From IMG/VR virus record IMGVR_UViG_3300021088_000102: a DNA stretch of 23,864 nt, one strand, 5' to 3'. Source of the DNA: a virus. A program made the translations under genes and the position numbers. Each line of letters opens with the position of its first letter. Position 1 is the stretch's first letter. Of this stretch, positions 12,467-12,723 are shown piece by piece. Below the pieces are notes generated by a model, which saw only the letters and a list, made by a program, of their open reading frames with translations, did not search any database and had not been told where the DNA came from.

Positions 12467-12589
12467 TTATCTATAAGGAATAAGCCAGGATGGTTTGAGA
12501 GGCCAATCTAAATACTCGTATTTACCTGAAAATGATAAACGAATCCAAGTACTATAAGCAGTTACCGATCTTCTTACCCACCATTTCAT
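12467..12589 (-). CDS. MKWW-family mini-protein (40 aa)
   Basis: MKWWVRRSVTAYSTWIRLSFSGKYEYLDWPLKPSWLIPYR. ATGA overlap with the upstream member. Confidence 0.5.
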   Translation of the reverse strand: MKWWVRRSVTAYSTWIRLSFSGKYEYLDWPLKPSWLIPYR

Positions 12590-12723
12590 ATTGTTACTCG
12601 TCTCCTGTGGAAATGATAACTTGGAAGTCCAGTCTTAAGTGTGTATGGGTACTTACGCCAGGTGATAGCTATGAATAACTTATTATTAGGATAACCAGTT
12701 GAGAATCTCTTCCACCAGCTCAT
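12586..12723 (-). CDS. MKWW-family mini-protein (45 aa, MSWW variant)
   Basis: MSWWKRFSTGYPNNKLFIAITWRKYPYTLKTGLPSYHFHRRRVTI. First gene after the SPOUT methyltransferase. Confidence 0.5.
   Translation of the reverse strand: MSWWKRFSTGYPNNKLFIAITWRKYPYTLKTGLPSYHFHRRRVTI

Follow-up and report, generated by a model that had tools for sequence, protein, structure and literature searches.

What are the very short open reading frames (ORFs) that occupy positions 12,467 to 12,723 of the viral record IMGVR_UViG_3300021088_000102, close behind an RNA methyltransferase gene, and do they belong together with a larger set of similar ORFs encoded elsewhere in the same DNA? The record, hereafter the window, is the whole stretch of 23,864 nucleotides (nt) that was analyzed (23.9 kb, 39.5% GC), and every gene in it lies on the minus strand. 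An earlier note on this DNA proposed a dispersed, multi-copy family of tiny basic proteins that begin with a tandem tryptophan (WW) tag and are encoded at two loci, namely a main array and the locus in question, which will be referred to as locus B. Both loci are confirmed here, and the patterns of selection and codon usage indicate that the mini-ORFs are very probably a real, translated coding family. An alternative genetic code was considered for the window and dropped, as all the large genes are intact under code 11.

The genes of locus B

Locus B and the genes that frame it are as follows.

12815–13369, minus strand: SPOUT (SpoU-type) RNA methyltransferase (Pfam PF00588, E = 5e-15); the mini-ORF chain opens on its stop
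12720–12815, minus strand: B1, 31 amino acids (aa), MWIRFYLRGRHSYITRLMLPRGRWSDTPFKK; start codon shared in part with the SPOUT TAA (TAATG), stop within the ATGA at which B2 starts
12586–12723, minus strand: B2, 45 aa, MSWWKRFSTGYPNNKLFIAITWRKYPYTLKTGLPSYHFHRRRVTI, isoelectric point (pI) 11.1, net charge +9; ATGA-overlap start, no Shine–Dalgarno (SD) sequence
12467–12589, minus strand: B3, 40 aa, MKWWVRRSVTAYSTWIRLSFSGKYEYLDWPLKPSWLIPYR, pI 10.1, net charge +5; ATGA-overlap start with B2
12286–12456, minus strand: 56-aa helical-hairpin ORF with its own SD, AAGAGGT, 5 nt before the ATG
11844–12311, minus strand: NADAR-domain gene (Pfam PF08719, E = 5e-24); these are the limits of the longest ORF, and the source call starts at 12242

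The earlier note had placed two copies of the WW motif on the plus strand at 12581 and 12711. Both exist, at positions that differ from these by 3 and 1 nt, respectively: CCACCATTTCAT covers plus-strand positions 12578–12589 and CCACCAGCTCAT covers 12712–12723, and their minus-strand readings open MKWWVRRS... (40 aa) and MSWWKRFS... (45 aa). The 40-aa MKWW and 45-aa MSWW ORFs joined by an ATGA overlap were therefore found as described, on the minus strand, with the common bases at 12586–12589. The SPOUT gene upstream and the NADAR gene downstream were likewise read correctly.

Two other parts of that description need amendment. First, it counted two coupled members directly after the SPOUT gene, and there are three, the one adjoining SPOUT being B1, a degenerate member that carries MW-IR in place of MKWWIR (M-W-I-R-F) and thus lacks the full tag. 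The resulting chain of 31, 45, and 40 codons occupies the entire gap from the SPOUT stop to the 56-aa ORF, and the TAA stop of B3 overlaps the AAGAGGT ribosome-binding site of the latter. Second, the 56-aa ORF was described as acidic and helical, with a good GAGGT ribosome-binding site. The site and the helical character stand, since AlphaFold2 (AF2) predicts helices at residues 5–14 and 18–45 from the single sequence with a predicted local distance difference test (pLDDT) of 88.7; the acidity does not, as the protein in the window phage has a pI of 8.0 and 9 K/R against 8 D/E residues. A fold search of the PDB gave no meaningful match for it. The gene calls of the JGI source contig include B3, as a 40-aa gene, but skip the other two genes of locus B (B1 and B2), and the exact B2 protein is not on record in public assemblies.

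The main array upstream of the RNA ligase

The main array (18437–19115, minus strand) lies directly upstream of an RNA ligase gene and holds six coupled members, A0 to A5, where five had been counted before; the extra one is the MIKWW... ORF at 19017–19115.

19017–19115, minus strand: A0 (MIKWW...)
18922–19020, minus strand: A1
18818–18925, minus strand: A2
18702–18818, minus strand: A3
18565–18702, minus strand: A4
18437–18568, minus strand: A5
17284–18474, minus strand: Rnl1-type RNA ligase (Pfam PF09511, E = 9e-20), the downstream anchor of the main array

The suggestion that these genes are always placed right after a larger enzyme gene suits locus B, which opens on the SPOUT stop, and fails for the main array. 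The latter is tied to the ligase and not to its upstream neighbor, a gene that differs between the window and the related phage L001 and that has no enzyme annotation. The window ligase begins with TTG at 18474, has its own AAGGAG inside A5 (18474–18500), and overlaps the last 12 codons of A5 out of frame, unlike the ligases of L001 and of a second relative, L099, whose starts overlap the last mini-ORF in ATGA or TTGA.

A further basic ORF of 52 aa (17145–17303, minus strand) begins 20 nt before the ligase stop and contains an internal ...HWWGLFITNPICTLRFRKEIRK that mimics the layout of the family (WW, hydrophobic, turn, hydrophobic, basic) without being N-terminal. It is possibly a decayed or extended tenth member, and the codon test described below lends its frame no support (–0.044).

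Definition of the family: tag, layout, and homology

Collectively, 33 members were considered, namely nine from the window, six from L001, seven from L099, two from L097, one each from L098 and L100, and seven from L084. The last is an unrelated 4.4-kb viral contig with a seven-member tandem array, which was obtained by scanning IMG/VR for two motif copies 80–141 nt apart. The 33 proteins have a mean length of 43 aa (31–74), a mean net charge of +7.7 (+3 to +14), an aromatic content of 12–29%, and a pI of at least 9.0, exceeding 10 in most members, and this composition is kept across genomes of 39–51% GC. In the nine window members W, R, and Y amount to 7.9%, 15%, and 10%, respectively, and the pI values of B1, B2, and B3 are 11.7, 11.1, and 10.1, with 19–25% aromatics.

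The members have a common layout: M-(x)-[K/S/R]-W-W-hydrophobic-[R/K]-hydrophobic, then a turn-rich stretch of G/N/D/P/S, a hydrophobic segment of beta type, and an R/K-rich tail; the tag reads MSWW-K-R-F in B2 and MKWW-V-R-R in B3. Over the 29 members used for the layout statistics, B2 and B3 included, the first position after WW is hydrophobic in 83%, the second is basic in 62% (18 of the 29, where 6.7 would be expected), and the third is hydrophobic in 76%. Positions 4–10 are rich in turn-forming residues (79 counted at positions 5–11 against 46.8 ± 5.4), and positions 11–18 are of beta type or hydrophobic, followed by the R/K-rich tail. In some orthologues two conserved Cys residues flank the turn. 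The truly invariant element is the WW pair, and synonymous variants occur at codon 2 (AAA/AAG, AGC/AGT); because the ATGA overlap forces this codon to begin with A, the residue at position 2 is K, S, R, or I.

Homology was assessed after the tag had been stripped, with composition controlled by shuffling and the results given as z scores. Among the tag-stripped pairs, 5.3% have z > 3, including non-orthologous pairs from different genomes such as A1/L084_a (7.0) and A5/L099_d (4.5). The main array gives values of 3–7 against members of L084, L001, and L099, and the paralogous pairs A0/A1 and A2/A3 within it give 5.4 and 3.5. For this reason, the main array belongs to a truly homologous family. 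At locus B, the only ORF with a demonstrable relative is B1, which gives z = 4.0 against its positional orthologue L001_e.

Are the mini-ORFs genes?

The most skeptical explanation is that the ORFs are not genes. They would either result from chance or merely accompany an element repeated in the DNA or RNA, for which a Chi-like recombination signal (GCTGGTGG), an SD-like GGTGG located downstream, and a structured RNA are examples. Some facts invite this explanation, because TGGTGG is the sole invariant element and Trp has one codon, the source gene caller passed over B1 and B2, and large protein collections contain hardly any of these ORFs. In addition, ATGAGCTGGTGG includes the E. coli Chi octamer.

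Chance is countered by the numbers. A second-order Markov model predicts 0.21 occurrences of the pattern ATG-NNN-TGGTGG, whereas the minus strand has six and the plus strand none; a seventh member starts with TTG. The 12-mer CCACCAKYTCAT has five copies, while 100 shuffles gave 0.00. No WW dipeptide is present in the 27 large genes of the window (6,045 residues), which serve as the reference set for the dipeptide and codon tests. In random sequence, the probability of the open frames would be 8e-4 for the three locus-B ORFs and 9e-7 for the six-ORF array. A repeated element fares no better: outside the family, TGGTGG shows no enrichment (the minus strand has 9 copies, and 9.1 would be expected), and the window has no long DNA repeats beyond the 12–18-nt junction motif. 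The Chi-site idea was rejected because of this lack of enrichment and because the full octamer is present in only two of the eight tagged window members. Likewise, neither Rfam 15 (E up to 1) nor the ARAGORN tRNA search matched 12467–12815 or 18437–19115, and the RNA of 12457–12830 folds no better than shuffles (z = +1.11), so that the structured-RNA and attenuator ideas were both rejected.

The variation among related metagenomic phages points to coding. Across the orthologue sets, the ratio of nonsynonymous to synonymous differences per site (pN/pS) is 0.03–0.49, with synonymous sites near saturation. For the last mini-ORF, i.e., the one adjoining the helical gene, the orthologues in L001, L097, L098, and L099 have pN of 0.14–0.26 and pS of 0.58–0.89, and follow the consensus M[KS]WWCI[FY]...R[IV]C[RC]I[QR]LR...PT[LS]RKSF. 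Their variation is greatest at third codon positions, with 0.45 compared with 0.29 and 0.23 at the other two (p = 2e-7, for pairs that are not independent). Where the corrected ratio dN/dS could be estimated, it is 0.13–0.27 for this ORF, compared with 0.06–0.14 for the helical ORF and 0.04–0.09 for SPOUT. On the ligase side, the L001/L099 pair of one 40-aa member differs by 10 synonymous changes versus 1 nonsynonymous change (pN/pS 0.026), and the other two pairs give 0.165 and 0.485.

The window ORFs have no informative orthologue, since the sequence L096 is the same phage with one single-nucleotide polymorphism, and a codon test was used for them instead. It expresses the choice of synonymous codons, relative to the usage of the reference genes, as a log-likelihood ratio (LLR) that is independent of amino acid composition. 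Each of the nine window members has its highest LLR in its own frame. Their pooled LLR of 0.067 per codon falls within the in-frame values of real genes (0.077 ± 0.026) and outside both off-frame distributions (–0.072 and –0.018). B2 (0.123 in its own frame versus 0.043 and –0.207 in the other two) and B3 (0.150 in its own frame) are the highest of the nine. With gene-like codon usage in nine of nine ORFs, pN/pS well below 1, third positions that vary most in the claimed frame, and frames that, in each of the five relatives, remain open across DNA that cannot be aligned, the explanation that these are not genes appears very improbable indeed.

Some observations weigh against the coding family. 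With the tag stripped, B2 and B3 align no better than shuffles (best z 2.0–2.1, mean about 0), and neither has an informative orthologue, L096 being the sole other copy. The per-ORF codon test is noisy, as an ORF lying over the RNase P RNA gene is also best in its own frame; hence only the pooled result carries weight, and the per-ORF score was abandoned as a classifier of other small ORFs. Moreover, since Trp has a single codon, the invariance of TGGTGG may have its cause in the protein, the mRNA, or the DNA alike. The membership of B2 and B3 consists in their tag, layout, size, position, and codon usage, and not in demonstrable homology; to this extent, the earlier assignment of both to the family of the main array holds for tag, composition, and layout, and lapses for homology beyond these.

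Relatives and turnover of the cassettes

No DNA-level relative of the window was present among GenBank phages. At the protein level, SPOUT matched only one uncultured 595-kb phage (50% identity), and the ligase matched cultured phages at 36% or less, so that the DNA and SPOUT/ligase protein searches found no cultured relative and no host. However, in IMG/VR and metagenomes the SPOUT protein retrieves a small clade of uncultured large phages. Those with a SPOUT at least 65% identical comprise five distinct sequences, L001 (the same as L002), L097, L098, L099, and L100, with 46–51% GC. In all five, one to three mini-ORFs of 36–45 aa and pI 10–12 start exactly on the SPOUT stop, on the same strand. 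The chain is followed by the orthologue of the 56-aa ORF (L001, L097, L098, and L099) or a longer homologue of it (L100, where two extra ORFs intervene), and then by NADAR. Absence or frame disruption of the ORFs in relatives that keep the flanking genes, the outcome that the earlier note had named as contrary to its proposal, was not seen, as they are intact in five of five. SPOUT relatives at 61% identity or less have unrelated genes and no such mini-ORFs at the equivalent position, and distant ligase relatives (29–33%) lack them at theirs.

The expectation that copy number or position would vary between related phages, as for a hyperplastic cassette, is borne out by L001 and L099, which are 89% identical from the ligase through SPOUT and differ by whole cassettes. 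Compared with L001, L099 has one more 40-aa MKWW cassette, which sits precisely at the junction that precedes the ligase. After SPOUT there are three mini-ORFs in L099 and two in L001; the part nearest to SPOUT, which holds one untagged ORF in L001 versus two tagged ones in L099, is unalignable, and the upstream arrays of the two phages are only 72% identical. The copy-number changes involve whole cassettes bounded by stop–start overlaps. The loci may therefore be pictured as growing and shrinking by gain, loss, or replacement of such cassettes at stop–start junctions, and the 12–13-nt junction ATGAAATGGTGGA could provide the microhomology for their exchange.

In L084, inspection by eye suggests that the last member of the array overlaps the start of a macro-domain-looking gene. 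The same contig has a second set of small basic ORFs with a ...VWIF[CW]W / LWVFRW motif; by eye, these lie between three paralogous ORFs of 123–165 aa, with a GIY-YIG-like ORF nearby. The features noted on L084 are at 3186–3673 and 1839–4156 (minus strand).

A tandem-motif scan of bacterial and archaeal genomes returned more than 120 matches, which were all dismissed as chance or unrelated tandem DNA repeats. Two Chloroflexia contigs of metagenome-assembled genomes, L245 (29–3310) and L290 (4280–7482), contain near-identical units every ~129 nt that read MSWWRA[ST].MMRSQVC.NRWQ.VY.TRELPS..., and look like highly similar DNA repeats unrelated to the phage family.

Expression: probably coupled cistrons, probably in separate units

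With few exceptions, the members start on the stop of the ORF before them (ATGA, TAATG, or TTGA) without an SD, as do all three ORFs of locus B, while the genes that follow the chains have an SD of their own, AAGAGGT for the helical ORF and the AAGGAG inside A5 for the window ligase. The mini-genes would be translated by termination–reinitiation, riding on the gene upstream, and we consider such expression by coupling likely.

This arrangement raises the question of whether it is the act of translation that matters, rather than the peptides. As regulatory or spacer mini-cistrons, the coupled chains would gate the downstream gene (the ligase, or the helical ORF and NADAR), possibly by sensing the availability of Lys, Trp, or Arg tRNAs under attack by host anticodon nucleases. 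Obligatory stop–start coupling without SDs and tandem Trp codons at the very start of every cistron would suit this role, as would the position of the main array directly upstream of a tRNA-repair ligase, ATGA/TTGA-coupled in L001 and L099, and the fact that B2 and B3 display no detectable sequence constraint beyond the tag. On the other hand, purifying selection acts on the peptides in every orthologous set tested, their composition and strand–turn–strand layout are conserved, and no alternative-hairpin or attenuator structure was found (fold z = +1.1). Furthermore, the SDs downstream of locus B and of the window main array make those genes independent of the chain, and stalling at codons 2–4 would lower, not raise, coupled downstream expression. 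Taken together, a regulatory role is rather unlikely.

The earlier note had also assigned both loci to one long operon. A consensus scan gave two terminator-like hairpins that separate them:

13391–13418, minus strand: terminator-like hairpin, a 12-bp stem then TTATTCTT, between the major vault protein (MVP)-like gene and SPOUT
11422–11453, minus strand: terminator-like hairpin after a 121-aa ORF

The scan detected no such site inside locus B. The two hairpins probably mark the 5' and 3' boundaries of a unit formed by SPOUT, the mini-ORFs, the helical ORF, NADAR, and the 121-aa ORF, and because of them the two loci are probably in different transcription units, contrary to the single operon proposed before; that this terminator evidence comes from a consensus scan counts against the arrangement given here.

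The genomic island around the two loci

The window is an accessory island, which begins with NUDIX and NAMPT, continues with the main array and the Rnl1 ligase, Thg1, an MVP/SPFH-like gene, and then SPOUT, locus B, and NADAR, and ends with an RNase P RNA-like gene and three tRNAs, together with genes for a glutathionylspermidine synthase-family protein, a single-stranded DNA-binding protein (SSB), and peptide deformylase. The features not yet listed are given below.

21856–23794, minus strand: NAMPT (492 aa) and NUDIX (155 aa), adjacent and overlapping
15874–16632, minus strand: Thg1 (tRNA-His guanylyltransferase family)
13433–15853, minus strand: MVP-like protein, 806 aa (PF11978, 3e-26; PF17795, 3e-10; PF01145, 5e-5)
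10996–11265, minus strand: compact bacterial-type RNase P RNA gene (RF00010, 106.3 bits against a gathering threshold of 100; the whole model in 270 nt)
9581–9667, minus strand: tRNA-Leu(taa)
8465–8541, minus strand: tRNA-Arg(tct)
6997–8139, minus strand: glutathionylspermidine synthase-family gene (E = 2e-144)
5051–5143, minus strand: tRNA-Ile(tat)
3862–4515, minus strand: peptide deformylase

NAMPT and NUDIX presumably act together in NAD+ salvage, as do pairs that have been proposed to counteract defense systems depleting NAD+. The MVP-like protein, which combines the shoulder and repeat domains of the major vault protein with an SPFH/Band-7 signal, is unusual in a phage, and its gene is followed by the strong terminator-like hairpin at 13391–13418. 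The RNase P RNA gene has counterparts in L100 (5855–6128, plus strand, 109 bits) and in L001 (9208–9395, plus strand; 53 bits, which is below the gathering threshold, E = 1.4e-14). The window has no evident gene for an RNase P protein, and the jumbo-phage literature that we found makes no mention of RNase P RNA. RNA repair and NADAR/Macro enzymes are regarded as jumbo-phage counter-defense, and Thg1 is reported to be only sporadic in these phages (PMC7824862).

The tRNA-Ile gene, with 93 nt, is unusually long and may carry an intron or an extra arm, and the Rfam tRNA model is silent on it at E up to 1. Two members of a second set of small, basic, Trp/Tyr-rich ORFs flank this gene; the set comprises 5335–5481, 5194–5298, and 6854–6994 (minus strand), with sequences MAYSVDLW...YYALRFWY, MPYTVRAW...FYAMRF, and ...KYFALRFRG, i.e., a common ...[YF][YF]A[LM]RF, and its per-ORF codon test is ambiguous.

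What might the peptides do?

Database searches gave no lead. The mini-proteins have no match below E = 0.03 in Pfam-A or PHROGs, the family profile has none among PDB sequences at E up to 10, and a search with it of 5.8 billion clusters and 1.84 billion representative proteins recovered only the L084 member, apart from two long repetitive proteins judged irrelevant. Literature searches for MKWW proteins or for Trp/Arg-rich tandem phage microproteins produced nothing relevant. For B2, modeled with its window paralogues, AF2 returned a pLDDT of 54 and no secondary structure, so that the strand–turn–strand reading is one of residue propensities alone.

Given the extreme cationic and aromatic character of the products and the lack of a predicted fold, our best guess is binding to polyanions, RNA being the most probable one, in the service of the island. 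The peptides would be disordered alone or fold on binding, with which the low pLDDT agrees when set beside the confident prediction for the 56-aa neighbor, and they might act as accessory factors of the RNA-repair, RNA-modification, and counter-defense functions encoded around them (NAMPT/NUDIX, Rnl1, Thg1, SPOUT, NADAR, RNase P RNA, and the tRNAs). This function is the weakest step of the proposal and we offer it tentatively, as a possibility that is clearly less likely than not. As a whole, the explanation that we prefer, namely a coupled, cassette-shuffled family of cationic microproteins that bind polyanions, has in our judgment about an even chance of being right. To be set against it, the function is drawn from composition and gene neighborhood only, a shallow alignment may be all that lies behind the low AF2 confidence, and membranes are bound by cationic Trp/Arg peptides no less readily than nucleic acids are.

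This last property suggests a different target, the host inner membrane, where Trp/Arg hairpin-like peptides might set the timing of lysis, exclude superinfecting phages, or shut off the host. Lengths of 31–74 aa, net charges of +3 to +14, 12–29% aromatics, the strand–turn–strand layout, and the two Cys flanking the turn in some orthologues are all compatible with membrane activity. Nevertheless, the grand average of hydropathy is negative in 32 of the 33 members, and the maximal 15-residue Kyte–Doolittle mean is 1.31 (median 0.31), which leaves no membrane-spanning helix; there are no signal peptides and no adjacent lysis genes, and nine copies in 24 kb inside operons of RNA enzymes are unlike lysis factors. 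A membrane role is accordingly quite improbable.

Another possibility places the emphasis on the tag, which might address otherwise unrelated, quickly diversifying small basic proteins to a common destination, for example for packaging into the capsid and ejection along with the DNA, in order to neutralize host defenses upon entry. The T-even internal proteins provide the same pattern, being diverse, defense-countering, and alike only in an N-terminal capsid-targeting sequence (PMC3012670). In the mini-proteins, too, only the tag and composition are common, cassette turnover is rapid, basicity is high, and the neighbors include counter-defense genes. However, the tag has 4–7 residues and is unrelated to the capsid-targeting sequence of T4, a prohead-protease-type site ([LI]xE) is found within the first 20 residues of only 1 of the 33 members, and the window contains no head or scaffold genes, the neighbors being metabolic and RNA-repair genes that are typically expressed early. 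Moreover, some members are under strong purifying selection (pN/pS 0.026) and are not diversifying. We therefore regard a tag-addressed arsenal of this type as rather unlikely.

In a broader form, the WW tag would be a recognition or addressing element that marks diversifying cationic microproteins, an unrecognized class of phage effectors, which we consider unlikely, albeit worth stating. Its versions, either ejected or targeted counter-defense peptides (the equivalent of the T4 internal proteins at one third of their size) or RNA-chaperone and cofactor peptides, are unlikely to the same degree even when taken jointly. The cofactor version draws on the RNase P RNA, tRNAs, Rnl1, Thg1, and SPOUT of the island and on the lack of an evident RNase P protein gene. 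Set beside all these alternatives, polyanion binding by coupled microproteins is the explanation that we retain.

Significance and comparison with known systems

Small proteins of phages are very numerous and mostly uncharacterized (PMC11323111). They make up a large, mostly unread portion of viral genomes, and ORFs of 30–45 codons are largely missed by gene callers and databases. The present family offers clear evidence of selection, a simple signature (stop–start overlap plus WW), and a modular mode of expansion. It is also located in an island of RNA repair, NAD+ salvage, and ADP-ribose removal, which are themes of the phage–host arms race. If the peptides were indeed RNA-binding cofactors or inhibitors of defense, they would be among the smallest such effectors, easily synthesized and tested; if they were neutral passengers, they would still illustrate the birth and multiplication of mini-genes at translational-coupling junctions.

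As for known systems, the T-even internal proteins (IPI, IPII, and IPIII, from the polymorphic IP locus) resemble the mini-proteins in that there are several small basic proteins with a short N-terminal tag, a content that differs between close relatives, and a link to counter-defense (PMC3012670). The mini-proteins differ in being 2–5 times smaller and unrelated in sequence, with a tag of 4–7 residues (M-x-W-W-hydrophobic-R-hydrophobic) versus a targeting peptide of ~10 residues, and their genes have no cleavage motif after the tag and lie among RNA-repair and metabolic genes, not head genes.

The mini-proteins can also be compared with several types of short peptides. Lactoferricin, indolicidin, arenicin, and the cationic phage lysis peptide 'disruptin' are similar in size, charge, Trp/Arg richness, strand–turn–strand appearance, and, for some, Cys content. 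The mini-proteins, by contrast, are cytoplasmic, without a signal peptide or lysis context, occur in many tandem copies, and have no demonstrable homology to them. Arginine-rich-motif peptides (lambda N, BIV/HIV Tat, and Rev) and the ribosomal proteins bL34 and bL36 are short, very basic, and unstructured alone, folding on RNA with aromatics stacked on bases; the mini-proteins are similar in these respects and in their RNA-centered context, but no cognate RNA hairpin or homology was found for them, and they are multi-copy and hypervariable. Lastly, the trp leader peptide trpL (compare ...KGWWRTS) is a short ORF with tandem Trp codons followed by Arg, as in the mini-ORFs. Here the WW is at codons 3–4 and not near the stop, there are no terminator/antiterminator hairpins and no Trp-biosynthesis genes, and the peptides are under purifying selection.

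A genomic parallel may be drawn with the hyperplastic regions of T4-type phages, in which short ORFs, linked in strings by ATGA-type overlaps, occupy the space between conserved genes and are quickly gained and lost. Strings of small overlapping ORFs in the hyperplastic regions of large phages are thus already known, and so are families that have only a tag in common, for which T4 is the precedent. What is new is the family itself, which has no match in any library or in the literature searched. Compared with the hyperplastic regions of T4-type and jumbo phages, its mini-ORFs form one recognizable paralogous family with a common N-terminal tag and an extreme composition, its signature is the stop–start overlap combined with WW, and the limits of its cassettes coincide exactly with the coupling junctions, with no promoter or stem-loop cassettes in between.

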